From assembly GCA_034226945.1 (NCBI GenBank), contig CP120454.1:372001-436000 (forward strand): a stretch of DNA of 64,000 nucleotides. The letters run 5' to 3'. Under the pieces are notes generated by a model. The model was not told the DNA's origin, searched no databases, and saw only the letters and a list, made by a program, of their open reading frames with translations. Source of the DNA: Picochlorum sp. SENEW3. Lineage: Eukaryota. A program made the position numbers and the translations under genes. Below, one piece after another: positions 5,495-24,869 of this stretch (positions are counted from its first letter, which is position 1; each line of letters begins with the position of its first letter).

Positions 5495-7387
5495 ATGCTT
5501 GTTCGTCATGCAGCAAGGTTTGGTTACACCCACGCCCTCGTGAGCGATCGAGGAACGACTAGAGTCCCTCTAAGACAGCCATTTGTCAAATTTCATGCCA
5601 GTTACTCGTCACATTGTGGCGGTATACTTGGAGCAGACGCCCTCACTCTTTGTTTGGCTGTTCCGGAAGGACAAAGAAGTTTGGTAGAAGAAAATGTCAA
5701 GGACGTGGTAGTGAGGGTGTATAATGTATCTGTATCGGCTCCAAAAGATCCTGGAAAAGACGATTTTGATGTCCATCAAGAGTTGTTGGAGTCAATCAGG
5801 AAGAAGTTAAAGCTCAGGTCAACTAAACCACTAGCAGAACATGGGAATGTTGCTATTGTGAGGAAAGCATTTGATTCTCGAGATAAATCTCGAAAGAAAT
5901 GGATCTACGTAGTGGATATTCCACTGAGAGCTCTTGATGGAAAGAAAATTGTGGAATCTCAGGGGAAGATTGAGATAATGGAGGTTTGCAAAGACCATGT
6001 CAACTGGAACCGTGTATCAAATGGGCAGGCAATCAATAAATCTGATCCAGTTGTTGTGGTTGGATCTGGGCCAGCGGGTCTTTTTGCTGCGCTCTCAATT
6101 GCTAAATCTGGCATCCCTGTAACAATATTAGAGCGAGGGCGCCCCGTGGAGGATCGAGGGAAAGATATAGGGGCCTTATTCGCCAGAAAGAAGTTGAACC
6201 CTGAAAGCAATCTCTGCTATGGAGAGGGGGGAGCTGGGACTTGGTCAGATGGGAAGTTGACCACAAGAATTGGGCGGAACAATGACCCAGTTCGACAAGT
6301 ATTGGAGACATTGTGTCTATTCGGAGCTCCAAATGCAATATTATACTCCGGAAAGCCCCACTTGGGCACTGATAGATTGATTGGAATTCTTAGGTCATTT
6401 AGGCATCACTTGCGGGACCTTGGAGTTAAGATTGAATTTGAATCTAAAGTGAAAACACTTGAAATAAAAAACGGGCGAGTTGTTGGAGTTCTGCTCGAGG
6501 ATGGAACTGGGTTTCCTTGTCAGAAATGCATTTTAGCTGTAGGACATTCGGCTCGCCAGATGTATGAGCATTTGGCAGATCTGGGTGTCAAGATGGAAGC
6601 AAAGCCGTTCGCCATGGGTTTTCGGATAGAGCACCCTCAAGCTGTTATCGATGCAATCCAATATGGTAAAGAGGATGCAGAGAATCTGGTCAAAAGAGGG
6701 AAGGGTCCGATTCCTGTTGCAGATTACAAATTAACAACCAATTTATCTGATAGAGGCATTTACTCTTTTTGTATGTGCCCGGGAGGACAGATTGTTCCCA
6801 CCAGCACAAATGAAGCTGAATTATGCATAAATGGAATGTCTTTCAGTAAAAGAAATTCAATCTGGGCCAATTCTGCCCTGGTCGCAACTATTTCAGAAAC
6901 CGACTGGGAACCATTTGAGAACGGTCATCCTGCTTTATCAGGTGTGAACTTACAAAAGCACATTGAGCGGAGAGCGGCGCATATGGGTGGTGGTAACTTA
7001 ATTTGCCCAGTGCAGCGTGTGGTTGATTTCCTCTCGGATAGAGAATCTGTAGGGAAACTTCCTTCATCCTCCTATCGTCTAGGTGTGAAAAGTGCTTCAC
7101 TGCATACTCTCTACTCAGCAGAAGTTACTGAGGCAATCAAACAAGCTTTGTTCAAATTTGATACCATCAAGCCTGGATATATATGCGAAGATGCACTACT
7201 ACATGCTGCTGAGACAAGAACGAGTTCGCCTGTTCAAATAACACGCCATCCAGAAAGTTTTGAATCAGTCTCAATAAAGGGTCTCTATCCAGCAGGGGAG
7301 GGTGCAGGATATGCTGGAGGCATTGTATCAGCTTGTGTTGACGGATTGAAAGTAGGGAACTCGATCGTTCAACAAGTCGCGTCCTAA
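5495..7387 (+). CDS. Uncharacterised FAD-dependent oxidoreductase, probably organelle-targeted
   Basis: 630-aa ORF: VVGSGPAG dinucleotide-binding motif, GEGGAGTWSDGKL, YSFCMCPGG, ETRTSSP, GEGAGYAGGIVSA. Confidence 0.85.
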   Translation: MLVRHAARFGYTHALVSDRGTTRVPLRQPFVKFHASYSSHCGGILGADALTLCLAVPEGQRSLVEENVKDVVVRVYNVSVSAPKDPGKDDFDVHQELLESIRKKLKLRSTKPLAEHGNVAIVRKAFDSRDKSRKKWIYVVDIPLRALDGKKIVESQGKIEIMEVCKDHVNWNRVSNGQAINKSDPVVVVGSGPAGLFAALSIAKSGIPVTILERGRPVEDRGKDIGALFARKKLNPESNLCYGEGGAGTWSDGKLTTRIGRNNDPVRQVLETLCLFGAPNAILYSGKPHLGTDRLIGILRSFRHHLRDLGVKIEFESKVKTLEIKNGRVVGVLLEDGTGFPCQKCILAVGHSARQMYEHLADLGVKMEAKPFAMGFRIEHPQAVIDAIQYGKEDAENLVKRGKGPIPVADYKLTTNLSDRGIYSFCMCPGGQIVPTSTNEAELCINGMSFSKRNSIWANSALVATISETDWEPFENGHPALSGVNLQKHIERRAAHMGGGNLICPVQRVVDFLSDRESVGKLPSSSYRLGVKSASLHTLYSAEVTEAIKQALFKFDTIKPGYICEDALLHAAETRTSSPVQITRHPESFESVSIKGLYPAGEGAGYAGGIVSACVDGLKVGNSIVQQVAS

Positions 7388-7424
7388 CGAATCTTCTAAA
7401 AAGTCAAATCAACAAACTATCTTA

Positions 7425-9306
7425 TCAGCTCATAATTTTAACCAACACTGGGGCGATCAGTTGTCTATCCTGAGCCCAAGCCCACAATACAATCTTCTTC
7501 TTTCCCATTAATGGCAACGAGCCACTAGCCACAAGACCTATTGATGGATATTTAGAATTCATGCCATGCGGACGCGCCGAAGTAACAATGCCCATGACAT
7601 CCCACCTATGAATGTCTTTCTTCGCTGCAACTGTCGATTCGCCTTTTCTTATGAGGCTGCGTTGTGAATCAATTCTCATCTTCCCACAAGACGGCAGTAT
7701 CTTAGGAGATTCAATAGCACATAAAATATCTCCTTGCCTGAGCGTTCCATTTTTGAGAATCCAAATTGCAACTCGAGAAAGTCTCTCGGATCTAGAAAAC
7801 AATGCCTGAGACTGTCTCATCAAATTTGATGGGAAATTCTCATTCTTGTCCAATCTCGCTGCAAATGTCTCCACAATCTTGCCAAATTGGTGAGAATTAG
7901 AGTAATCATTCGGATAAAATGCAAGTTTATTTAGAGTGTGATACCAGTGCCATTCCCTTTGACCTGCAATGAATGCCCCAGACAAGCAGATTGCTTTGAA
8001 GATTACCTGATATATATCCCTGTTCAGATAGATGGAGAACCCTGCACAAGGCAAGATATTAGTAAATGTCCCACTTGACACCAGAGATATGCAATTTTGA
8101 AACACACCTGAGCTATTCCGAATGACAGCAATGGTGATACTGTCATCCGAACTAGCACACTCTCTCCCTCGAGGCTCGCTACAGACACAATATCCCACCA
8201 GTCCTGACACAATATCTGACAGGCCATTGGACAAGTCTGAGGCCGAATATATAACTTGTTTCTTATTGATTCTATCATACATTGACCAAATACAGTTGTC
8301 ACCCAGTGACGGGTCATTGTGATTCTCAATTGTTAAAGGTGCTCTTCTCCTTCCCTCGTCCCCAAGCTTGCTGATGATCCTTTCAGACACAGGGCCCCTC
8401 ACTTCAATCCTACCCAGCCTTCCCAGTTTCATGCTGATGTTGTCCGATTTCTTAACCTTTTCACACACGTTCCGAATCACTGGGGCTGCATATTCGCAAT
8501 GTGCCCAGATAATGACCCTGCTACTCTCACAAGTCATGATTTCAAGAGGCCCTGTGCAGCATGAGCCATTGCTCCCTGGCACATCGGCATGTTGATGTGA
8601 ACTACGTTCTTCGCCCACATATTCGGGACTTGTATAATTAGATAGATCCGAAAGAATGGGCAGAATCTCCTTCATCGGCCCAAGTAATTCGATAGAGCAC
8701 CAATAGGAAGCATCGTGGATTATACAGCCAGTCTCCAGTCTGTGCTTGAATGATCGAGTTCCTCTTCCGCAACCACACGTACCCTCAGGAACCACAAACT
8801 TCCAACTATATGAAACAAATGTATGTTAGACATAGATCTAATGATGCAATTATCTGGTTAATGACGTTACCTGTCAATCCTGGACATGGCCATTCTCTTC
8901 GCATGGAAGACATGTGTTGGGAGCCTGCAAACCTCACCAGGGCTCATTGCACCCTTCTCCCAAGGATTCGAACACTCATCAAAACTTTTTTTCCTTCTCA
9001 TCCGCCGATTGAGAAACCTACCCGGGGAGTCCTTGTCTTTATGGACGTTGGGTCTCCTGCCACCTCTCCGATACCGTTTATGACTCCTAGACCTCCTCCT
9101 CAAGCCTCTCGGCAAACCTCGTATTCCATACTCATCTTGGCTCGAACCCTTAACCTGATCGTGAATCGATAGTATCTGCATCGAAAGAAGATCTGATACC
9201 TTCAGTAAAGAGGACCAGAGAGACCAGTCCAGTAAAAGGAGCAGCGACGTACCTCCCGAATTCTGGCCTCAGCCAGTTTATTTACATCAACAGCTCGAGT
9301 AGACAT
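7425..9306 (-). CDS. POP1: RNase P/MRP protein subunit POP1
   Basis: Three exons: VDVNKLAEARIRE / LPRGLRRRSRSH...RLPTHVFHAKRMAM / GRGTRS...IHDASYW...AGQREW...FYPNDY, matching POP1 N-terminal and POPLD motifs. Confidence 0.85.
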
Positions 9307-10183
9307 GTGATAAAATAGCCTACGTCAGATCATTCTATTGATAAAATCCATCCATATTTTGGGGTACAGCAGGAGAGCTGCATGCTTTCGATATTTGTTC
9401 ACTCGTGGGCACGCTACAGTCCTTTTGACATTGCTCACAACACCGGTAATCTTTTCTGAAACACTCTAATTGCTTTTATTGATTCATTGATGAAAGTATC
9501 ATAGTATGCCCGTAGATCCGAATTTCATGGTGGCGCCCTCGAGGTCCACTTCAAACAGAACATCATGTTCCCAACCAATGGCATTGGTTGATTGGAGTTA
9601 AACTTTAAACCTGGGATCCAACAAATCCCCGAAATAATGCTTTCATATGCGGAATGCCGTAATATTGTACAGCTATGATGAAATGCGGCTAAAACGTATC
9701 TGGAATGATGGCTGGGAGTTTGTATGTGTGATCCAACACCTTTTTGCTACGAAGTATAGTTTGGAAGAGTAGGTCGAAGAACGAGCCATTGCCTGGTGTT
9801 AAGCAGTCACCAACCTTGCAGCATCTGATCACTCAAAGTGTATAGAATTCGCTCTCTGGAAGTTATAATCACTCTGGAAACTGTATTCTGATTAGCCTTC
9901 CTCCCATTTTGCAGGTTCAGCTCTAGACTTGGCCAGCTCTCAAGAGAAGGAATGGGGCTAGAGAGGATAGCTTTGCTTTCATTCATCCACTTGTTTACTG
10001 GTATAGATTCGCGGTAGCATATTGGCAATTTTAATCTAGGGGCTGTATATTGATAATGTCTCCCGCCTTGCGGCCATCATGGCACATGGCATGTATGAAA
10101 GCCCAAATCTCGGCTGGTCAACGTTCTGGTTGACCCCGTCAAATTCATTTGCATACCCCGCGTATCCACAATTTTAATAGATA

Positions 10184-13100
10184 ATGAAATATAACAGAGT
10201 TGATCAAGATCCAACAAGAGAGTGGGACCGTGCAAGCGGTGCAAAGTTGGTGTTTCTTCAGTTTCGAACTCTTGTGAGAAAAGAATGGCTCGTGAGGTGA
10301 GTATTGCATCTTTGGAAGCTGTATATCGAACAGAAATAAATTACAACCACCTTGATACAATAGGAAAAGGAAAACGAGGCTCAACTTCTTGCTTCTTGTA
10401 AGCTCGACCCTCTGTGTTGGAATGATTTGGGTCTTCAATGCTGCGATGGATTTATACCAGCAAATGGATTCCAACCGAAGGGTCGTCAAGTATTCTGAGA
10501 TGATATCAATGACGTCTGCCATTCCAAGCTGCAAGGACAATATCTTCATGAGGCAGGACATTCCATGTTTTAGCCTTCTGTATGCTCCGGTGTGTGGCTT
10601 GAATGTTGCCAGCCTTGCTTGACTCTATGTTTCGAGTTCGTTCTACTTAACACGTTGAAAATGTAGGAAAACAAGGAAACAAGAGAGATCGTCAATAATA
10701 TTCGTGAAGATAATGTGCCGAGCATTGATGCATCACTGGTCAAAGGCTTTTCCTCTGGAAAAGAGATGGATGAGTATTTGTACACTCATCCAAACTCAGT
10801 GGTATCGGCTGTAGAATTCTTCAAGGAAAGTGATAAAAATTATGCATTTTCGGTTCAGACGAATGGAACAGTCCGCTGGTTCAAGGGAGTTTTTCAGCAA
10901 CCCCATCTGTATGCTCAACTTCCAGTTGTTGTTGCTGTTCAGAAAGCCCTAGCATCCATGATTGCTGGAACGCCTATAGAATGGACAGTTCGCATTGGAG
11001 AATATCCCCATCCAGCTATATCAGTACGTTGACGGGATTTAACCTCAGCATGCTCCGCTTTTTTTGTGCATGAGAGTTGGTATTGTACATGCAGGCTCAA
11101 ATGTTCACAAGCAAATTTGCCCCGCTATTTTTTGTGTCGAGCATTCTCTTGGTACTGATACTGCAAATCTACGAGATTGTGGAGCAGAAAGAAAGGGGAA
11201 CCATCGGGCTATTGACATTAACTGGCTTGCAGTACGCTAATTTTCTTGTTTTTCTATAGGGACCACAATGGTTGACTGATAATCCACTGAATGTTGCAGG
11301 TTCACTCCGTACTGGAGTTACCTTGTTGCCACATACTCTACTCTGCATCTGGCGAATGCATCACTTCTTTCCCTTTTGTCGGTAGCAATTCAGCTCCAAC
11401 CTGTGAGTTCTGTTGCCTCGTTTTTTGCCCGTTTCTTGATGGACCTCAGAATCACTGACATCGTATACTGTTCTCTTTTGCAGTTCCACGGAGTCAAAAT
11501 ACTTTATTGCTTCCTCCTTTTGGCTAATTCTTCACAAGCAATAATGGCATTAGGCCTACTGTCCTCCTCCCTTTTGAGAAAGGTGTGCACCGTGTATTTG
11601 TGTACATGTTCTCGTTGATGATTAGATATCTTGCTTGGCTGGTAAACAACCAAAGTACCTCACCAATTTCTTGCAGACTTCCTCAGCTATATCTACAGGC
11701 TTTTTACTTTTTTCTTTGGCTTGGATAATGATGGTGTTTCTTAGTTTTGGATTCCCTTTTAACCTGGAAGGTGAAGGAGTCTGGAAAACACTGTTCTGCA
11801 TGTTTCCATGGACGATCACATTTAGAGGATACGAGCTACTCTCCGACTCCAACACAGCGTCAGAGACATCTAACTTTCCCATTCTAATGGCCTTGCTATC
11901 CGCTCAGAATGTGATATACACTGTCTTGGCAATCTACTTTGATGCTTGCCTGCCAGATATTAACGGCAAAAGACGGATACCCTGGTTCTTGTTCAGATTG
12001 GAACAGTTGCACTCAAAGGTACGATACACATCCTAACCGGTTAGTCGGAAGATAATCAATCTGACTCATTTTCATGATCATTGATAGGGATATGTTAGCA
12101 AAAGCCTACTCTCCGCGACGAATCAGAAGTCCAATCGATGCTCGGATGATGCAATCGATCTCGAGGAGAGAAAAATCAAAGAGCTTTGTCGGAAGTATAT
12201 TACTGAATCAATCGAGGATCCTGAATACGCAATCCAAATACACGGGTTGCGGAAAGAATATAATTTGCCAGGATGGCTGAACAGAAGTAGCAGGATTGCC
12301 TTAGATGGTGACTGGTTCGGTGTCAAAGCAGGTAAGATAGCGCAGTAGGTTGACAACAAGTTGAGCGCGACGCGTGTCACAAATAGGTGTGCATTCGACA
12401 TGTGCTGATCCCAATATGACGATCGCTATCTTTGCAGGAGAATGCTTTTGTCTTCTTGGGCCTAATAGTGCTGGCAAAACTACTTTGATCAAGTGTTTAC
12501 TTGGACTAACTAAGGCTTCCAGTGGTACGGCTGCTTCGCCTTTATTGCGAGAGTACTGGTTCCTTATTATTTTCGCTAAAATGATTTGTACAGGTCAAGC
12601 AATCATCGACGGAAAGAGCACTTATACATCGAGCGATCTTCAGGAAGCATCGAAAAACATAGGCTATTGTCCCCAGCATGACGGATCTCTTTGCGATCTT
12701 CTGACAGTTTGGGAGAATTATGAATTGTTCTGCGCAGCGAAAGGAGTTGTTCCGAGCTTGGCGGAAAAGCAGAATGTTCCGATAATCACGGTGCGAGCTA
12801 ACAATGAGTTTTCCTTAAATTCCAATGAATGAACACACCATGACACCGCCGTACCTTGCGCAGGGACAGCCGAATGCCACACTGCTCAATGCGTCTCCCT
12901 CCGAACGAAGGCAGCTTTCCATCGCAATCGCACTGATAGGAAATCCAAAGGTAAGTGGAGCAACCTATAAGAGTTTGGTCTTAACACTGATATCAATCAA
13001 GCCATGTATTGGAATATACTATATATATATTCAGGTGATAGTACTAGACGAGCCAACTGCTAATGTCGATCCTTTCGTGAAGAGGACACTGTGGAAACAC

Positions 13101-14072
13101 ATTGAGGAATTGAAAAATGAAAGATCGACTGTGTTTCTCTCGACCCATAGTATGCATGAAGCTGAAATTCTCTCCGACAGGTGAGTCAAAAGATCGATGT
13201 CGATGGTAGTAGAGATCTCAATGACGATTTTATGACTCAATGCGCAGGCTCGGAATTATGGTGCGAGGGAAGTTACGATGCTTGGGTTCTCCTCTGGAAC
13301 TCAAGCGGAGGTTTGGATCCGGATATAAAATTAGCCTGGGACTTCGAAAAGATATTGACGTCGACCAAAAGACTATACAAGAAAATATTGTTCAGCTTAT
13401 GCGGAAAAGCATGACTCTGAAATCAGGTATGATGATCGCAGTGCTCCAAAGGTTTGATTATTGATTGATAATGACATCTAGTTGCAGTTGAATTCTCAGC
13501 TGATTATGTGAATATTACCTTACCATACGAAATGGAAGATAGGTTGCCACTGATGCTGACGCAGCTCAATGTACGTGCACTTGAAGACTGTGTGTCCTCT
13601 ATTTATACCTAAGGAGCAAGCTTGTTTTTGACGCAGAATAACATGGAGTTGCTTCATATTCGAGACGTGCAGCTGCGACCAACTCCGATGGAGGAAGTTT
13701 TCATGACCATAACAAAAAAAGCGGAACTTGAAAATGCTGAGGTGCGTGTGCTCATATATCGTGTTTCTAACTTTGAGAGTAAACTGATTTCACTGGTGAT
13801 GGTTCCACAGGCCGAGGGTAGATTTGAGACATTGCTATTAGCTGAGGAGGGTATTGCTCTCAAAATACCAGTGGGCGCAGATTACATCGAGAGTCCAGGT
13901 GAGAATTCGTTTGCAATAAACAAATCGGATGTTACAACTATCGATCTTGCTGTATACTGTTACAGGTGGAAATTTTTATACAATCAAATGGACAAAAGAT
14001 CGCTTAGGTCACCTGAGAATTCACGATTATTCTCCTGACAAATTCCGCATTCGCGAGGAGAAAGATCGATAA
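10184..14072 (+). CDS. ABCA half-size transporter, plant ABCA2/ABCA9-like, many exons
   Basis: Spliced fragments give N-terminal TM, ectodomain, TMD, Walker A GPNSAGKTT, Q-loop IGYCPQHD, Walker B VIVLDEPT, H-loop LSTHSM, RCLGSPLELKRRFGSGY and the C-terminal MEEVF...KAELE...IPVGA tail; exon edges approximate. Confidence 0.85.
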
Positions 14073-16420
14073 ATTTTCTTAGACTGATCTTCGATGATTG
14101 CAGCCTTTACTCTGCATGAATAAATAAATTTTTAGATGCTGTCAACTATCGTACCAATCTTTTTGTATATGATGTAATTCGTACCTGTAATCATCGACGT
14201 GTCGTTTCCAGTTTTCCATGTTGATCTTTTCAGGCAGGTTCGCATTATAGGCTGACTTTACTTCGTTTTCGCACATTGGTTTCGGATGCTCTTTACCCAT
14301 CTACACAAAAAAGAATCGAACTCCATCACAATTCGTCTCCATGCTTATGAAACTGCCACTCAAAATTCGTACCTGCTTCATTAAGTGAGGGCTACTCCAT
14401 GAGAGATAGCAGAGGGATATTTGTAGCAAAGAATACGAAGAGCTTTGAGGTGACGACTGGCATATTACTGGTGGATGCTTTAGTGTGAAATCCATGCTGG
14501 TCTTCTTGGAATCTTCGTCTGCTGGCATTGGTGTTTCATCTAAGCGCTCGGAGCAGCTGAATTTTTTCAGCTTGCACATGATGAACTCAAAGTCTTCCAT
14601 GCTTTCGTCGAATTGGAAGTAGACGTCCTCGAGATACTTGATATACCTGTCTAGATCTCGTACGTTCAACTGAATAACCTGCAAGTGAAAGAAAAAAGAG
14701 TGATTGTTTAGTCTACTCTGTGGCCGTTGTTCCAATAGTTTTAAAGCTGGTATCAATTGACGTACGTCACGGGAGCGAACACGGTGAGGCATCAGCCTAT
14801 CACTGTGCAGAAGATTCTCAAATGATGATTGTATGAGTGAATCCCATGCTGACCGATCTTCCACACAACTAAGTATGACATCAACTGCAGCAAATGTATA
14901 TTAAATTATTTACCTTGCCATATGCGTGAGCAACCAGAAAATATCAATTCCTAGTTTTCATGTAGCTTTTGTCTTTGTTCATATCAACATTCAAAACCAT
15001 GCCTCACCATAAAATGCAGTTTTTGTGGCCTGCATAGCCCAAGGAGTCTTGAATAGGTCACACAAGTAGAGCTCCGAGGAGTTTATATCTCCACCGTAGA
15101 GAAATTGACACGTTGAGAGCGGTGCGAGTATTTCCTGCATCAAATATCATAGCCATGATGACTGAAACAATATTCACGGTAGGGTGAAAGAAACTAACCT
15201 CTGGCAGGCCAAGGGTTACTGCATATCGCTGGTTCCAGGCCATGGTGTGAAGCGGAGGAACTTTATAACGAAGAAAAGATCCTAAACGTCGGGATTGTGC
15301 ATATATCTTTGCAGGACTAATGACCCCTGCATCACAATTGTCAGAATGTTTGTCTGCCATATACATTCACGGACAATAATGAATAAAACATACCCGGTCG
15401 ACAGAAAAAGATCTTGGGAAACATTGTCAAATATTGTTCTAAAGAGGATTTGAATATTTTCCAAAATCCTAAGTATTCGATCCTGCCTGTCGATGACAAT
15501 GTGCAAATATCCATGGGGTCTAATGTCTCTCGCATCATCCAGCATCCTAGAAACAAAATGGTCAGGGAAAGCGAAAGAGGCAAGAACTGCAACAAGATGC
15601 CACGGTGAGACCAAATTTTGAAAGCGTGTCCAGAAACAACATACTTTGTTCAAGTGCATGGTGACAATAGCACTTGCTCGGCTTGTCTTCCTACCCTGAT
15701 CATCTTCAAGCATCTTCTCCTCGCTCGCAGCAATCTCTCTCTCTATGACCCTGCAAGCGCACAATGTTCGTCATGATATCAACATAAGAAAAGTAGGTTC
15801 TCTCTCATTAGGATGACGTACTCGTAAAACGACGATTCTAAAACCCCCGATTTCTGGATATATAGGAACCAAATTTCTCGAACACGTTCACGGAACACAT
15901 CACAACGGGAAATCAGATCCAGCCTCTCCAGCTGGGAAATCTGAATCTGCACGAGTGAAATCTATACGTCAAACAATACTTGAAGACCTGTTCCAGTGCC
16001 CGTAGGAATTACAAACCTGAAGTAAATCTTGAAAGGCAAAGATGTATGCTTCAATTCCTTCCTGAATGGGCAGCTTTTCCTTCTCTTCTACGCGCTTCCA
16101 TTCAGTCTTGTATTCACTTGGAGCCGCACGAACTTCAGTACGCCTGCATATGATCTCATCTCGTATGAGCCCGAAACTTAAATGAATGGAATCACAGCTG
16201 TTTGCACACACAACTCACCTGGTTGCAGCTTGGTACTCCTGTGTTTCCTCCAAAAAGTTCTGCAAAGCCAATGTTGTCAAGCCGATTGAAACAAATATAA
16301 ACTTTTAATATGAAAACCTACTTGTTGAGTAACCCCGCATGTTTCGCAGACTAAAATCCCAGCTGTCAGTTGCAAAGTCCCTGCAAAGCATGTTTGACAC
16401 AAACCCCCCTCTTCTTCCAT
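14027..16420 (-). CDS. TAF1B/RRN7-like RNA polymerase I initiation factor (TFIIB-related), multi-exon
   Basis: ATG 16420: MEEEGGLCQTCFAG...ILVCETCG zinc ribbon, then AFQDLLQ/IQ...VREIWFLY helix pattern seen in RRN7/TAF1B; later exons include ORF 14301-14864; 3' end uncertain. Confidence 0.55.
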
Positions 16421-16696
16421 TGCAGAGGGTAATCAGTACCCCAATAAATGACAAATTCAGTTAATTTATTTTGACATGAAAAAAGATGCAGTCAGTACCG
16501 ACTTTCCACTCTCGACAAGCCGAAACACACGTCAGTGCTCTCTGCAAATCTGAGCCTGAATTGTCAAACACGGAAGAATGACCTCCGTGAAGGTCACGGG
16601 CACAATGTAAGAAAATTATACCATAGATCGATATATTGTTGTGATACGTATTTATTTCAATAGCAGAGCACCTGCTATTTGAACAAACTGTTCGAG

Positions 16697-17790
16697 ATGT
16701 CTTTGTCCACATGTGTAATCGGAGGAAGCAAAAACACTGCGTTTGCCGGTAGTGTGCGAGGTAAGTAGCCTAACATGTTACTAAAATGTAAATATTGGGT
16801 AACAATGGAGTTTCTGGGACCCTACGCAGCATTTACTCAGCGAAGAAGGTTGTATCAGAAGAGTACCAGGCCTGCTGTCAAAGTTCAGGCCAACTTGTTT
16901 GAGCGAATCGTCAGAGTTGCTAAATCGTATGCAAATGCCTTTGGTATGTTGAATGAGTGTATCTCTCCCTTGGCTAGATGAACTGGTGTGATGGTCTGTT
17001 TCTGTGTGTCTGCAGTGAGCTCTGTGGAGGATCCAGAAAAAGTATTGGATCAGGCAGTCGAGGATATGCAGAACGATCTGATTAGGCTGAGACAGGCCGC
17101 TGCGGAAGTCACGGCGTCGGAGAAGAGAATGCAGGCGAAGAGGGATCAGGCGCAGAGCACAGCAGTGCGTACTATCATTGCCATGGAGCCCATCATTGTG
17201 TTGATCAAATGACTCACGCTGTTATTTATTTACTCTTGCAGAATGAATGGTATCGCAGAGCTGAACTCGCGCTCAGCAAAAATGATGAGGAACTTGCACG
17301 CGAGGCGCTGTCCAGGCGTAAGGCTTTCCAGGAAAATGCTGACATGTTGAGTTCACAGTTAGACCAGCAAGCCAAGGCTGTTGAAACTATCGTCTCCAAC
17401 ATGAGGACACTGGAAGCAAAGTTGGCGGAAGCAAAAATGAAAAAGGATACTCTAAAGGCGAGGGCTCAATCAGCCAAGTCAGCCAGAGCAATCAATGACA
17501 TGGTAGGAGGGCTGAGCACTGGCAGTGCCCTTTCAGCTTTTGAAAAGATGGAAGAAAAAGTCATGTCACTGGAGGCCGAGGCCGACGCTGCGACACTTTT
17601 GGTCGGTGGTGCAGATGACCTTGAATCGAAATTCAAGCAGCTGGAAGGTGGAGATGTAGACGACGATTTGGCTGCCATGAAGGCCAAACTCGGCACCACA
17701 ACCGTTGCTGGCCAACTGCCCCCCGGCAGACCCGTCAAAGATGCGATTGACGTCGAGCTCGAGAATATGAAGAAAAATATGGGAGATTAA
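16697..17790 (+). CDS. VIPP1: VIPP1/IM30 (PspA/ESCRT-III family), plastid
   Basis: Transit peptide, then NLFERIVRVAKSYANA / EDPEKVLDQAVEDMQNDL / WYRRAELAL...AFEKMEEKV, plus the VIPP C-terminal helix IDVELENMKK. Confidence 0.93.
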
Positions 17791-17830
17791 TTAATTGTAG
17801 TATTGAGGTGTAAACGAATATTTTACCAAA

Positions 17831-18556
17831 CTATTCTACCATACCATCAATGATCCCCAACCCAACAGCCTCCTTTGGACTCAAAAAGTTTTCTCTATCA
17901 CACTCTTCTTCGATCCTGTCTGTAGATAACCCTGTCGAACTAGATAAGAACTGGTACATCATCTTCATGGTGCGATTCAGCTCGGTCGTCTGAATATTAA
18001 CCTCATCCGCTGACCCCTGAGCACCCCCATTCGGTTGCTGCAACATTATCCTGGCATTGGGCATGCTAAATCTTCTGCCCTTTGTCCCTGCAGCTAATAT
18101 CTGAACGGCATTTCCTCCCACCATACCGAATGCGACGGTGCTAATTGGTGCCTTGACAGCTTCCATGGTATCCAAAATTGACACCACCGAGTAGGAGGAA
18201 CCTGCCGCACAATTGATGTACAACTTAATTTCATCCTCTGTGCTTAATGAATTTAGTGCTAATAAGCTAGCTACTGTCTTAACTGCCACCTGATCGTTGA
18301 TTCGCTCACCTAGAAAGATAATTCGATTGCGGAGCAAGTGGCTATTCAGATCTACAACATCCTCGTTGTTCTCACCCAGCTGTATTACTGGAGCAATAAT
18401 TGGATCACGCTCTCGACGAGCCATACATACCAATCTGCACGCAACGTTGGAACGGTGATTCAGTACATGAGCGAAAACGCAAGCACTCTTGCTATTCTCA
18501 AGATTTCCTTTCATCCACGCACCCTGCACCGCTCTCATACAAAGATGAATTTTCAT
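17831..18556 (-). CDS. CLPR6: Plastid Clp protease non-catalytic subunit (ClpR6, ClpP6-like)
   Basis: ClpP fold (LLRNRIIFLG, YINCAAGSSYSV like plant ClpP6); catalytic Ser site reads VGGNA and His site reads MLQQP. Confidence 0.8.
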   Translation of the reverse strand: MKIHLCMRAVQGAWMKGNLENSKSACVFAHVLNHRSNVACRLVCMARRERDPIIAPVIQLGENNEDVVDLNSHLLRNRIIFLGERINDQVAVKTVASLLALNSLSTEDEIKLYINCAAGSSYSVVSILDTMEAVKAPISTVAFGMVGGNAVQILAAGTKGRRFSMPNARIMLQQPNGGAQGSADEVNIQTTELNRTMKMMYQFLSSSTGLSTDRIEEECDRENFLSPKEAVGLGIIDGMVE

Positions 18557-18901
18557 ACGAACTCAGAGGTCTTGATTGAACACCACGCTGGTCCACTGTA
18601 TGGTGGAAGAACCTCCTCTCCCGAGGACAGGACTGGGTAGTCCTGCAAAGACTCGTTTCAAGTCGAGCAATGTGAGTCATGAGTAATTATAAAGAGTTTA
18701 TAATGCATCTATACCGAGAGATGGTGTGTGGTGGATTTCCATGAGAATCCACCGTGCCTCATCCATGGCCTTTGGCCAATGGCCGCCGATGGCTTCCATC
18801 CGACATTGTCGAAACCACGTACATTGCCCACATACACATCGAATACAGCATTCTCAATATAATTATAGCACATTCCGATTTTAACACGTAGATCGGCAGT
18901 C

Positions 18902-19590
18902 ATGATGAACGTGCGTCCTTCCAGCGTTGCCATGGCCACAAGCACAGCAGGTCTTCCTGTTACTGTGCCAAGGGTGGCACATTTTGGATCATGTTCTGTA
19001 ATTCGTAGAGTACGTTATTTGTTCTAGTTTTTAGCCGTATTGAATGGATGGTTTTTGGCTGAAATGAGGTGAATGGGGTTGTGTGGTAGTGTCGCCTGGC
19101 AGTGTGGTGGCCATGTTTGCCGGCATTGCTATCGGAATGCTTTCTCATTTTTTAAATTCTTTTGATGCAGCAAGCTGGCGTGGTGCCTGTTGAGCGTCCA
19201 GCGACCCGCACGCTGGCCGCCCCGGTGTGTGTTGCCGCTGCTGCGACAGAGGCTCCAGAGGCAGTGGCCTATCTCAGATTTGCAAGAGGTTCTGCTCTCA
19301 AAGTGCGTAGAGTTTTGGACCAGATTCGCGGAAGATCATATGAAGAAGCTTTGATGATTCTGGAGTACATGCCATACAAAGCCTGTGAGCCAGTGATTCA
19401 GACACTTCTCTCAGCTGCAGCAAATGCCAAGAACAACCTTGGAATGAAGAAGAAAGATCTGTTCGTAAGCGAGTGTTTTGCTGATGAAGGTCCAGTAATG
19501 AAGAGGTACAGACCTCGTGCGCAGGGAAGAGCAAACAGGATTTTAAAGCCAACAGTGCACATTACAATCAAGGTAGCAGAAAGATCATAA
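18902..19590 (+). CDS. RPL22: Nucleus-encoded plastid ribosomal protein uL22
   Basis: Transit-peptide exon from 18902, intron, then [28 protein letters not shown]...PRAQGRA...HITI. Confidence 0.92.
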
Positions 19591-19595
19591 TGTAA
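19591..19595 (+). terminator. TGTAA chlorophyte polyadenylation signal (representative example)
   Basis: TGTAA directly after the RPL22 stop; similar TGTAA signals follow many other genes (e.g. about 17810, 35431, 39594, 44103, 52020 on +; about 45473, 48807 on -). Confidence 0.65.
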
Positions 19596-19600
19596 CATAG

Positions 19601-22600
19601 CTATTCAATGTCTTCCAGTAGATTGAGGTACACATCTTCTAAACTCAAATTCGAGACACTCCAATCTGCAATGTCTACTTTTGGCCCAAGTTTCATCTTT
19701 TCCATTCTCCTGAAGACAGCATCGATTGTTTGGTTGGCTGTGAGAGGCAGAGCAAATTTGAGCGTTTTGCCAAACTCGCTGACCAGTTCAGCATCCTGAA
19801 ATGTGGATCTGACACACTTGATGATTTGTTTTCTACTTTCAGTTGTGTTGACAGTGATTGTCAGCCACATGAATCTTCCATACCTAGAAATCATCTTTTG
19901 TGGAGACCCAAGAAATGCGATTTCCCCCTTTCTCAATACAGCAATGCGGTCGCACGACTCTGCCTCCAGAATATTATTTGTCGAGATGACCACCGAAACA
20001 CTTTTTGTTGCTTCTTTCAGGGCTCTCCATAGTACTTTCCGCGAGTATGGATCCATTCCTGCTGATGGTTCATCAATAAATACAACTTTAGGGCCATTGG
20101 GATCCCCCAGACCCAGCAATGCAATTGCCAATGAGAGCCGTCTTCGCATACCCCCGCTGTATTGGGCGACTCTCGTTTCAATTGAAGAGTGCAAATCAAG
20201 AGACTCTATCATATTTTGTATGTACGCGTCAATGTTCGCACGTCTTCCAAATTTTATCATACCAAAGATTTTCAAGTTTTGCCACCCTGTAAGCTCATGA
20301 AACAAAATGTCTGTATCCCAACATGCCCCAATAGGTATATTCAGAGGAAGCTTGTCTCTAGAGTCCCAGCCCTGGACAAGAATCGTCCCTTGGTCCTGAT
20401 GAACAAGGCCGACCGTCATTTTCAATATTGTGCTTTTGAATGAACCTGGCGCAGCACCTAGGAATGCAAAGCATTCCTGGTCTTGGATCACCAAGGAAAG
20501 ATCGATCTCTAACTGATCATATTCGGAATACTTCTGCACCGCCTGATAGATGACCGAGAAATCGTAATGTTGGATTAAACTTGGATCACGCTGCAGCATT
20601 TGGACCAGCCTTTTGCTATTTTCTCTTGTGTCATCTTCATCTTCGCGAGCAGCTGGTATTTCGAGACTAGTATCTGCGTATGATCCTAAGTATTCTGCTA
20701 GAGAAGATTTTTTCTTCGCTCTAGAAGTCCTTCCCTTTAGCTCTGTTTCACTGAGATGGCCCAAATAATAATCTAACTCATCTTCAGAATTCTTTCCCTG
20801 AACAGCATGACTACTGGAGTCTGCTCCATCTACCCTGCTAACTTCTTGTTTTGATTTCCTTTTAAGAAAAAACAAATAGCCCCGTCTTATTCCATCAACA
20901 TTGCCCATGAGATAATCAGAGTAAAGTGCAAGGAGCGGTATCACCAGGCTCTGAATCAACATGGCAAGCAGAACAAGCATCATGCTATTATCGGTTGCCA
21001 TGGTGTTCCATGAGATTCCTTTGTGCGCACCAGATTGATCTGCCAGAAAGGCATACTGAGATAGCTCATAAAGTCCTGCCAAACAACAAACAAACTGTCA
21101 AATTTGCATTGACAACAGTTCATGCATCTGAGTCAAGCCAGATGATACACACCTCTAAAAGCGCAAAAGCTTGGCACAAAAAATTGAAGAATATTAGCTG
21201 ATATGTCATTTTCTTGTTCAATTAGCAGAACTAGGACGACATTTGCCAAAAACCCCATGATTAAGATGTAGAACACTGATGATAATGCTCCTGACCTTCT
21301 GTCCTTGAAGAAAGATGCATACAAAAATCCAAAACTGATGATCACGGTTCCCCACAGTCCAAAAAATGCTATTTGGATTGATATTATATTCTTAGTAAAC
21401 ATCTTGACTCCAAGCAAAAAGCCAAAACCAACAAAGCAAGACATGTAAATGCTATACATGCCCATACACCACACAAATTTTGAAGCATAGAATGCAAACG
21501 GTCTCAGTCCATTGATATGCTGGAAAATCCTCAAATCTAGTTCTTTTTCATATACTAAAGAGTTGAGGTGGAGTGGAAGTATCGCATGCATCAACCACAT
21601 TGAAAACAAAGGACCCAACAAAGTTGAGAAGTCAACAGTAAGGACCGAGGACTGCCTTGGCATGTCCCTGATCCCAGCCAGGTTCACAGATCCATCGAAA
21701 AAGTATTTAATATATGCATTCGATGCAATGTTAATAGATTGTGCCCAGCGTTGGATGTCTGGGATATCCATGGGACTATAGACTCTTGGGGTGTTAGCCC
21801 AAATGTCTACCTGCAGGTTTGAGGCATTTGTTAGGTGCCAATCATACGCACCGATAATCTTTGCACTTCTGTCTCCCCAATCTTGGTAAATGGCATTGTT
21901 AATATCGTCAGACGAGTTGAAATATTTGAACAGAATGTTCAGCGTCGCGACATGCATGCCTGTCAGGTTGGCAACAGATTTCGGAATTGAGGACATTACT
22001 TTGTCAGAATGGGCACCCTTGCTCCGACCATCTTGTAAGAGATACAGCTTCTTCTCCTCATTAATTTCGGGGATTAAAGCGCGTTCTAGTAGCAGAGTAC
22101 CCGAAGATATATCTGAAGTTGCCATGCTAACGCCAAAATCATGTAAACCCTTGACCAAAGCACCCGTAGCCTCGATAAATTCGAGTTCCTCAGCATTTTC
22201 ATCCGCCTCTGTCCCACCACTCTGATGAAATCCATCCATGGATTCTATTTCATCCAGTACCATTGACTTGACGTATGATTCAGCGACTTTGGAGGCCACC
22301 AACGCAGAGTTAGAAAAGAATGAATCCATGATTTTTGTTGTGTCCATTTCGTCCCCCCCTGTAAATGCAATATACCCAGTATCCAGGGTATCTGGCGGTA
22401 TCTGCATTAAAGGGGGCCATAGCGGGGTCTGCTTGACGTCACAGAATGGTGCCTGATTGACAGAGGAATACAAAAAGCTACAGGTAGCATTATTCTGGCT
22501 TGAACAAGACCCAGATGGGGTACATGGCTCGACCCCTGTCGAATTGTAGCAATCCAAACATTTACAACCACATTTGAATGCATCGATATCAACGTGGTTA

Positions 22601-22746
22601 GATATCGAGTTCTGTGCGATGATCAGAATGGCCAAGGCAATGAAAGGCGCTGCCCCAAGAGCTAGTACTCCAAAAGGCCTCCGAAACTGTAACAGAGCAT
22701 CCTTGTATACGCATGCAGAGATCTGTGAGACTAATTCCCTTTTCAT
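19601..22746 (-). CDS. ABCA half-size transporter, plant ABCA7-like, 2 exons
   Basis: KCGCKC ectodomain, WPPLMQIP, LVYEKE, FRGLYE across the intron, signature YSGGMRRRLSLAIAL, VVFIDEPSAGMDP, DWSVSNLSLEDVY. Confidence 0.88.
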
Positions 22747-23112: not shown

Positions 23113-24869
23113 ATGTTCCATAAAGTTATTCGAAAGTCAGTTCTGTATTCGCAGACACGTCTGAGATTTGCAGGACGACAACCGGCGAGTCACTGTTTTG
23201 CTGTGCTGAATAGTGGGACAGGAGCAGCATTCACCAATACTCTGCACAGGAACAGGTGCTTATTTTCCAATAAAAAGTATCACTACAGAGACTATAGTAA
23301 GTCTCAGGGTGTGGTCGGCGGTTGTTCGAGATTTGTGATGACGAAAGCCACAGGTGTGGAGTACTCCTGCATGGAGCAAACGGCGCGAGCTAGCTCGTAC
23401 GTGGTGACCGAAGATCAAATTAATGGAGAACCAATGGAACTGAAGATATTTACGGGGATGGAAGCGAGAGACTGGCTGGACCAGTTGTCAGACAAGGACA
23501 AGAACTGGGTGAAGGCAAGCAATTTTTCAGGGAAGGATGGGGAATTGGCGCTTCTTCCCGGAAATGATGGTCAGATAGATTATGCTGTCTGCGTCTTAGA
23601 CGATTTATTTGACATTTGGGGTTATGCCAGCCTTCCATCGAAGCTGCCACCAGGATTATACCGCTCTTCTAGAAAATTGGAAGGTCACCATCCACTGTCC
23701 ATGGCAGATTCTCTCTCTCTTGGGTGGATTCTCGGGACATATTCCTTTGATAGGTATAAATCTAATCGTTCAGACAGCCAAAATCTCTCAAAGGTCAGTT
23801 TGGTGTTGCCAGAGGGAGTCAACAACGCCAATGTGTTGGGAATGGCTGAGGGAATATTTTTAGCCAGGGATATGATCTCTACCCCTGCTGAAGATATGGG
23901 TACGTAACACTTGAGCAGAATCGTGTCCACTAGTTTGTCTGACTGAATTCAATGCATGCAGCCCCTCAACATATCGAGAAAGAAGCAAGAGAACTCGCAT
24001 CCGTTCACAATGCCACGATATCATCAATCATCGGGGATGATCTTCTAAAGGAAAATTACCCAGCAATTCATACCGTTGGTAGGGCATCCGTGAATGCCCC
24101 GCGTCTTATTGATATGAGATGGTCCCCACCTGAGGGAAAGGATCTTCCAAAGATCACACTCGTTGGGAAAGGCGTTGCATTTGACACAGGTGGTCTGGAC
24201 TTGAAACCAGCAAATGCCATGAAACTCATGAAGAAAGATATGGGTGGTGCAGCCTTGGTGTTAGGGCTAGCCCATGCCATCATGAAGACAAATTTACCGG
24301 TTCAACTGCGAGTCCTAATTCCTGCAGTGGAAAATTCTGTTTCTGGGAACGCTTTCCGTCCTTTAGATATACTGCAGACGAGGGCTGGAATAACTGTGGA
24401 AAATGGCAACACGGATGCGGAAGGTCGCCTCATCTTGTGCGATGCTTTAGCAGAAGCGGTCACCGAGAAGCCCGACTTACTTTTAGATGCAGCTACATTG
24501 ACTGGAGCCGCCCGGGTTGCTCTAGGAACAGAAATGCCGGCTCTGTTCTGCACGGATGATCATGTTGCAGATGAAATCATCAGAACATCCAACCATGTGC
24601 AGGATTACATGTGGAGAATGCCTCTTCACAAGCCATACAGGAAAATGATCAGCAGCAAAACTGCCGATATCGGATCTTGTTCCGAAGGAGGATATGCCGG
24701 CGCTATCACAGCAGCCCTTTTCCTGGAAGAGTTTGTGAAAGAGGCACCTGTCTGGGCCCATGTAGATACAATGGGGTACAATCTATCATCCAAGCCTGGA
24801 AGACCAGAGGGCGGGGAAGCACTTGCATTGCGGGCTATTTTCACATACCTGAATAAAAAATACTCTTAA
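23113..24869 (+). CDS. M17 leucyl aminopeptidase (PepB-like) with N-terminal targeting peptide
   Basis: Two exons; VGKGVAFDTGGLDLK, MKKDMGG, NTDAEGRL, ATLTGA metal-binding motifs. Confidence 0.92.

Follow-up and report, generated by a model that had tools for sequence, protein, structure and literature searches.

Two diverged ABCA half-transporter genes

The window analyzed here, a 64,000-nucleotide stretch at positions 372,001–436,000 of contig CP120454.1 (C2) of Picochlorum sp. SENEW3 (genome 13.85 Mb in 14 contigs), contains two convergent genes for half-size ABCA proteins of the ATP-binding cassette (ABC) type: an ABCA2-type gene on the forward strand and an ABCA7-type gene on the reverse strand. 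Both are diverged 'b' copies, and the motifs of their nucleotide-binding domains (NBDs) have degenerated reciprocally. The two genes and their NBD motifs are listed below in window coordinates.

10184–14072 (+): ABCA2-type half-transporter gene, diverged 'b' copy; open frame, 899 aa, 17 exons (10184–10296, 10364–10589, 10667–11023, 11095–11231, 11300–11402, 11484–11582, 11677–12018, 12088–12331, 12438–12524, 12594–12790, 12864–12950, 13035–13180, 13248–13426, 13488–13570, 13637–13741, 13811–13898, 13966–14072)
12458–12484 (+): intact Walker A, GPNSAGKTT; contributes in cis to the predicted active site
12668–12682 (+): Q-loop CPQHD, intact
12864–12950 (+): 87-nt exon with the degenerate signature ASPSE (12891–12905); contributes in trans to the predicted degenerate site
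13044–13073 (+): Walker B LDEP, intact (13044–13055), and D-loop NVDP, with the Asp present
13140–13148 (+): H-loop STH, intact
19601–22746 (−): ABCA7-type half-transporter gene, diverged 'b' copy; open frame, 1022 aa, two exons (22746–21153, 21075–19601)
20429–20458 (−): distorted Walker A GAAPGSFKST, with Phe for Gly before the Lys and one residue extra; Lys kept
20309–20323 (−): Q-loop CWDTD, with Asp for Gln
20147–20161 (−): signature YSGGM, intact; contributes in trans to the predicted active site
20048–20077 (−): Walker B IDEP (20066–20077) and D-loop GMDP
19973–19987 (−): H-loop ISTNN, without His

The D-loop of an ABC protein acts across the dimer, with its Asp facing the ATP site of the partner. 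Each ATP site is composed of the Walker A and B motifs, Q-loop, and H-loop from one NBD (cis) and the signature from the other (trans) (PMC7756269). The motifs that the initial annotation had read from the two genes (GPNSAGKTT, ASPSE, LDEP, and STH; GAAPGSFKST, YSGGM, and ISTNN) were all found where it had placed them; the loss of the Q-loop Gln in the ABCA7-type gene was overlooked.

The ABCA2-type protein comprises a first transmembrane (TM) helix, an extracellular domain, TM helices 2–6, the NBD, a regulatory (R) domain, and an ABCA11_C tail. It shares 882 identical residues with P0301 of Picochlorum sp. BPE23 (898 aa), in which Pfam identified ABC2_membrane_3, ABC_tran, and ABCA11_C (52 bits, cut-off 27), indicating that the C-terminal regulatory domain is present. 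The best PDB matches of P0301, by both sequence and fold, are human ABCA1, ABCA3, ABCA4, and ABCA7, and the predicted ABCA2-type structure has a six-helix transmembrane domain (TMD), NBD, and R domain, at low confidence (mean predicted local distance difference test, pLDDT, 59). The ABCA7-type protein is identical to P0269, labelled Picochlorum sp. SENEW3 (1022/1022 residues), with matches to ABC2_membrane_3 and ABC_tran and a predicted structure of TM1, extracellular domain, TM2–6, NBD, and R domain (mean pLDDT 73). Matches to R1_ABCA1 are weak and below cut-off (17–18 bits), and the fold of this regulatory domain is present in the predicted structure. ABCA12_C has no match on P0269, matches below cut-off on the orthologs P0007 and P0148, and is above cut-off in Chlorella and Micractinium orthologs. 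In trees that were without named land-plant ABCA2/9/11 sequences, the forward-strand gene product groups with a canonical ABCA2-type protein, which together with its ABCA11_C tail places it in the ABCA2/9/11 clade; the reverse-strand gene product groups with ABCA12_C-bearing half-transporters, including Selaginella 'ABCA8', and hence falls in the ABCA3–8/10/12 ('ABCA7') clade.

Transcript support for the degenerate signature

Four sequencing runs were mapped to the window, of which X1 and X2 are DNA-like and X5 and X7 yielded spliced contigs; that the latter two are RNA is a guess backed by the splicing, as no run is recorded as RNA, and expression levels are not readable from them. Spliced contigs of both ABCA genes are contained in X5, where the single intron of the ABCA7-type gene is removed. 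For the ABCA2-type gene, six introns are among the 15 splice joints listed (of 34), and one more comes from a further table. X5 contig 17 starts exactly at 12864 and then joins 12950 to 13035. The upstream joint, 12790|12864, is not itself among the joints listed; we deduce it from X7 contig 21 (296 nt), in which the first 190 letters match 12600–12789 and a 16-letter loose end matches 13037–13052, because the remaining 90 letters fit the 12864–12950 exon. The same 12790/12864 join is present in the NCBI model P0301, and a related contig that carries both genes (L034; PJEL010000128.1) has an intron at the equivalent position.

A gene-model artefact at 12790/12864 was ruled out by these contigs together with the P0301 join and the L034 intron. 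A six-frame scan of positions 9000–16500 for [LIVMFYC]S[GSA]G gave three matches, all of them outside the stretch from the Q-loop to Walker B, so that an alternative exon restoring the signature was also ruled out. Pseudogene status of either gene was rejected on the basis of open frames, splicing, and conservation. The degenerate ASPSE signature described in the initial annotation thus stands, exact in location. RNA support for its exon, there proposed as a check, was obtained from the X5 and X7 contigs and from P0301, with the 12790|12864 joint given by arithmetic only.

Conservation of the reciprocal losses

Catalytic residues were counted in two diverged-clade sets: 17 ABCA7-type sequences (including that of the window and the near-duplicates L035 and L036) and five ABCA2-type sequences (window, L034, P0306, P0322, and P0323); P0303 and P0305, which are without an NBD, were left out of the ABCA2-type count. 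Among the 17 ABCA7-type sequences, the canonical cis residue is retained in 10 for the Walker A Lys, 17 for the next Ser/Thr, three for the Q-loop Gln, 10 for the Walker B Asp, 17 for the Walker B Glu, and none for the H-loop His, and the trans residues are retained in 16 (signature Ser) or 17 (signature Gly; D-loop Asp). The ABCA2-type sequences retain each of the six cis residues (Lys, Ser/Thr, Gln, Asp, Glu, and His) in 5/5; for the trans residues, the signature Ser is present in one, the Gly in three, both together in none, and the D-loop Asp in two. Tallied by composite site, the predicted active site is canonical at 80/81 positions (30/30 cis in the five ABCA2-type and 50/51 trans in the 17 ABCA7-type sequences) and the predicted degenerate site at 63/117 (57/102 cis and 6/15 trans); these tallies are descriptive, as the rows are related, and no statistical test is attached to them.

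The most decayed ABCA7-type group (7/17) is without the Walker A Lys and Walker B Asp, and its partner-facing residues stay; the most decayed ABCA2-type group (3/5) is without the D-loop Asp, and its own catalytic residues stay. P0306, P0322, and P0323 are strongly reduced ABCA2-type proteins with a short linker between TMD and NBD and no D-loop Asp, in which the Lys, Gln, DE, and His are intact. On L034, both genes lie on one contig at 40–45% identity to those of the window, in the same gene order and with the same loss pattern (ABCA2-type GPNSAGKTT, ATAAE, LDEP, and ATH; ABCA7-type GASGSYKST, VFD, YSMGT, and STS), and the reciprocal pattern is repeated in orthologs down to ~35–45% identity. 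As judged from the aligned sequences, the reciprocal motif pattern is more than chance.

Outside the Picochlorum-lineage clade, ABCA7-type 'b' orthologs are canonical for the Lys, DE, His, and SGG in 8/8 cases, including proteins of Chlorella vulgaris, Micractinium, Myrmecia, and Trebouxia; the loss therefore dates to the Picochlorum lineage. Protein searches gave no ABCA2 'b' counterparts for the canonical ABCA7 'b' proteins of these four genera; the third such search contributed two further orthologs, with no ABCA2-type sequence from Chlorella or plants.

A second, canonical pair and full-length relatives

Exon-by-exon searches of the SENEW3 genome identified four ABCA halves in all, and no full-length ABCA was found in three such searches, which an intron-rich gene could escape. 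The initial annotation had overlooked that the genome encodes a second ABCA2-type/ABCA7-type pair, the 'a' pair, in which all NBD motifs are canonical (contig C1, ~236,100–242,900; equivalent to L021:2617–5809 (−) and 6139–9372 (+)). These two genes are head-to-head, with 329 bp between their first ATGs, and likely share a promoter; this pair is stronger linkage evidence than the window pair.

The two halves also occur fused. P0010, P0126, P0129, P0170, and P0181 are full-length ABCA proteins whose N-half is ABCA2-like and whose C-half is ABCA7-like, and in the first four of these the motifs of both NBDs are canonical. In P0010 (2050 aa; a 55-member cluster from ENA, on contigs of ~8 kb), NBD1 is followed by ABCA11_C and NBD2 by ABCA12_C; the protein seems to be without the first TM helix and the extracellular domain, and may be truncated.

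Trees of the TMD, NBD, and R domain were computed from 53 and 51 rows (601 columns) by quick searches, with the Shimodaira–Hasegawa-like approximate likelihood ratio test (SH-aLRT) as the only support measure; 8 of the 16 full-length proteins included were chosen from the top of a ranking by reciprocal score. The N-half of P0010 joins all ABCA2-type halves (SH-aLRT 97, 96), its C-half joins all ABCA7-type halves (98, 99), and the N-half of P0126 (labelled Cavostelium apophysatum) joins the P0010 N-half and the ABCA2-type halves (95). A branch with support of 98 splits the N-halves and ABCA2-type proteins from the C-halves and ABCA7-type proteins, and a single clade of half-transporters was rejected by the approximately unbiased (AU) test (p = 0.00035; a test made with the tree already known). 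On the ABCA2 and the ABCA7 side alike, the 'b' proteins make up separate clades (97–100).

What is robust is that some eukaryotes encode an ABCA2-like half followed by an ABCA7-like half in one chain. The broader idea, an equivalence of the ABCA2-type with the N-half across full-length ABCAs in general, was not upheld, either by motif counts (among 221 full-length rows, 13 of them the P0010 cluster, 100 have the reciprocal pattern and 102 its ABCA2 half only) or by a tree with randomly sampled full-length proteins, in which a clade of ABCA7-type halves is supported at 100. Half-size ABCAs have been reported to be closer to the C-terminal halves, with no subdivision in the part of that account cited here (PMC4649718). 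Either fission or repeated fusion would point to joint action of the ABCA2-type and ABCA7-type proteins.

Gene neighborhood and linkage

The stop codons of the two window genes are 5.5 kb apart, in agreement with the spacing reported in the initial annotation, and four unrelated genes lie between them.

14100–19590: four intervening genes, outside the transporter: an unnamed multi-exon gene (−), a PspA/IM30 VIPP1-like gene (+), a Clp protease family gene (−), and ribosomal protein L22 (+)

The block M17–ABCA7–L22–Clp–VIPP1–unknown–ABCA2 (seven genes) is syntenic as a whole in L034, and the linkage of the window pair was accordingly set aside as special evidence. It counts as weak evidence, because the synteny extends beyond the two genes and takes in the four unrelated ones that separate them. 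L035–L039 end before reaching the partner gene. With regard to the co-degeneration and linkage of orthologs, which the initial annotation had suggested comparing, the losses proved to be conserved and to map to one composite site, with P0131 as an exception, and the linkage amounted only to wider synteny.

The unnamed gene (window ~14,100–16,450 (−); L034:12553–14052 (+)) is conserved and has an N-terminal CxxC...CxxC motif; it had no Pfam match, and its product may resemble TAF1B/Rrn7. In X5, the contig of this gene continues into the ABCA2-type transcript at its 3' end, which suggests that the 3' ends of the two overlap. The adjacent PspA/IM30, Clp protease family, and L22 genes (16,700–19,590) encode probable plastid proteins; their order is the same in L034, and L22 and/or Clp are also present in L036, L037, and L039. 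An M17 leucyl aminopeptidase gene (23,400–24,869 (+)) is directly upstream of, and divergent from, the ABCA7-type gene, an arrangement conserved in L034, L038, and L039.

Proposed asymmetric heterodimer and alternative explanations

We consider it likely that the ABCA2-type and ABCA7-type 'b' proteins pair as an obligate, asymmetric heterodimer in which a single ATP site works. The two genes would encode different halves of one ABCA transporter. Site 1 (ABCA2-type Walker A/B, Q-loop, and His with the ABCA7-type YSGGM) would hydrolyze ATP and drive the transport cycle; site 2 (the ABCA7-type P-loop and the ABCA2-type ASPSE, with Gln and His missing) would hydrolyze slowly or not at all, and may serve as a nucleotide-bound hinge, as in ABCG5/G8 or TAP. 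Neither homodimer would hold a complete ATP site. The ABCA2-type and ABCA7-type proteins would be long-standing partners, with trebouxiophytes carrying two pairs, an 'a' pair that is canonical and a 'b' pair that is canonical in Chlorella-like relatives and that would have given up one ATP site in the Picochlorum lineage. The loss of both halves of one site could be tolerated only where each protein almost invariably pairs with the opposite type.

The heterodimer itself had been put forward in the initial annotation; the conserved one-site losses, the canonical sister pair, and the natural fusions all argue for it, although the motifs would fit more than one partner, as the genome has a canonical paralog of each type. 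The further claim of exactly one active site is favored by the reciprocal losses, with the qualification that site 2 may still bind nucleotide, because the Walker B Glu and, in the window protein, the Walker A Lys are kept. In Chlamydomonas, the ABCA2-type gene and one ABCA7-type gene are co-induced (r = 0.99) at similar abundance (PMC9605142), which is what a heterodimer would require. The substrate is most likely a lipid, and the site of action the endoplasmic reticulum (ER) or another endomembrane, by analogy with AtABCA9 and CrABCA2 (PMC6999713).

Several observations weigh against this interpretation. Retention of the Walker B Glu in all 17 ABCA7-type sequences means that site 2 may not be dead, and the 'active' ABCA2-type NBD is imperfect, with GPNS rather than GPNG and a helical subdomain shorter than that of human ABCA1. 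Each canonical paralog in the same genome is a possible partner. In P0131, an ABCA7-type 'b' ortholog, the signature Ser is missing (CKSGC) as well as the H-loop His, and canonical signatures are present in P0302 and P0304, two ABCA2-type 'b' orthologs that are sister to the diverged clade. Both genes were observed on the same DNA in two independent lineages only (the close group of the window and L034), the linkage in the window is ordinary synteny, and the P0306 and P0008 groups are putative partners from tree position only. With 16 random full-length ABCAs (drawn from the other 199, mostly animal-type), the grouping of ABCA2-type proteins with N-halves was not recovered, and a single half-transporter clade was not rejected (AU p = 0.28).

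It is also conceivable, if unlikely, that the proteins cross-pair, with ABCA2b partnering ABCA7a, ABCA2a partnering ABCA7b, or all four combinations forming. Each such cross-pair would likewise have one complete site; the genome holds one canonical gene of each type, and the motif logic permits such pairing. Cross-pairing would leave unexplained why both 'b' proteins decayed at the same composite site in the same lineage, and it sits poorly with the separate 'b' clades on both sides of the tree and with the head-to-head region shared by the 'a' genes. Relaxed selection, or a non-catalytic role as scaffold, regulator, or lipid sensor, would account for the pair as fast-evolving duplicates in a reduced genome, with the complementarity partly coincidental. 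The long branches in the Picochlorum lineage, the defects of P0131 on both sides, and the shortened, odd NBD and TMD of the P0306 group are consistent with this; we nevertheless regard it as quite unlikely, as the decay is non-random, with near-complete retention of the ABCA2-type cis and ABCA7-type trans residues, and the frames are open. Moreover, in related runs (40 of 281 rows listed), 26 coding differences comprise 15 synonymous and 11 not, none in a motif, and every indel listed for the two genes either lies in an intron or preserves the frame.

Independent homodimers seem very improbable. Here the ABCA2-type protein would tolerate a non-canonical signature, and the ABCA7-type protein would be a separate, low-activity homodimer. 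Half-size ABC proteins may assemble as homo- or heterodimers (PMC5355449; PMC9605142), overexpression of CrABCA2 alone raised triacylglycerol (PMC6999713), and the signature Ser is retained in the ABCA2-type protein of the window. The overexpression results, however, come from cells that hold both types, and homodimers provide no reason for the ABCA7-type signature and D-loop to be kept (16–17/17) while the Lys, Asp, Gln, and His go; fused proteins in the order ABCA2–ABCA7 also exist.

Comparison with known systems and significance

Half-size ABCA proteins (ATH) of plants and green algae fall into an ABCA2/9/11 clade (AtABCA9; CrABCA2 = Cre14.g613950) and an ABCA3–8/10/12 clade (AtABCA10) (PMC9605142). 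The window pair resembles these half-transporters in its forward TMD–NBD order, six helices, large extracellular domain after TM1, and ABC2_membrane_3 and ABC_tran domains, as well as in the ABCA11_C tail of the forward-strand gene and the grouping of the reverse-strand gene with ABCA12_C-bearing proteins. Unlike the other ATH relatives examined, which have canonical NBD motifs, the window pair has reciprocal losses at one site. In this respect it resembles ABCG5/ABCG8 and TAP1/TAP2 (ABCB2/B3), each encoded by two half-genes and deviating on both chains at a single composite site: the signature and Walker A are altered together in ABCG5/G8, and Walker B and the H-loop in TAP (PMC7756269). Unlike those transporters, the window pair belongs to another subfamily and fold, its heterodimer is proposed from sequence, four unrelated genes separate its genes, and it keeps the catalytic Glu and is without the Gln, His, and signature. 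Full-length ABCAs (human ABCA1, ABCA3, ABCA4, and ABCA7) provide the best PDB sequence and fold matches, but are single chains, in contrast to the two separate chains of the window pair. Among human full-length ABC proteins, degeneracy always falls on nucleotide-binding site 1 (NBS1) (PMC7756269), whereas the degenerate site of the window pair would be NBS2 by the order of the fused relatives, with homology to the human N- and C-halves putative.

Both Arabidopsis clusters hold ABCA2-type as well as ABCA7-type genes, and the possible extension of the pairing to plant gene clusters, as put forward in the initial annotation, draws on such family knowledge. Work on half-size ABCAs in Arabidopsis and Chlamydomonas has treated them as genes for oil yield, singly and with no partner named in the parts of these reports cited here (PMC6999713; PMC9866645; PMC9605142). 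A proposal of an ABCA2/ABCA7 heterodimer was not found in the literature searched, which left most subscription papers outside. We see about an even chance that all green-lineage half-size ABCAs (AtABCA9, AtABCA10, CrABCA2, and relatives) work as ABCA2-type/ABCA7-type heterodimers that match the N- and C-halves of some protist full-length ABCAs, and that the Picochlorum 'b' pair reveals this, with its degenerate site opposite to that of human full-length ABC proteins.

If so, an ABCA2-type/ABCA7-type unit would explain why genomes keep both clades, as well as their linkage in Picochlorum and Arabidopsis and their reported co-expression in Chlamydomonas; biochemistry, structural work, and oil engineering would need both genes; and the few heterodimeric ABC transporters with one working site would gain an ABCA member. 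Picochlorum, with four genes that comprise one canonical and one asymmetric pair, would offer a clean test system.

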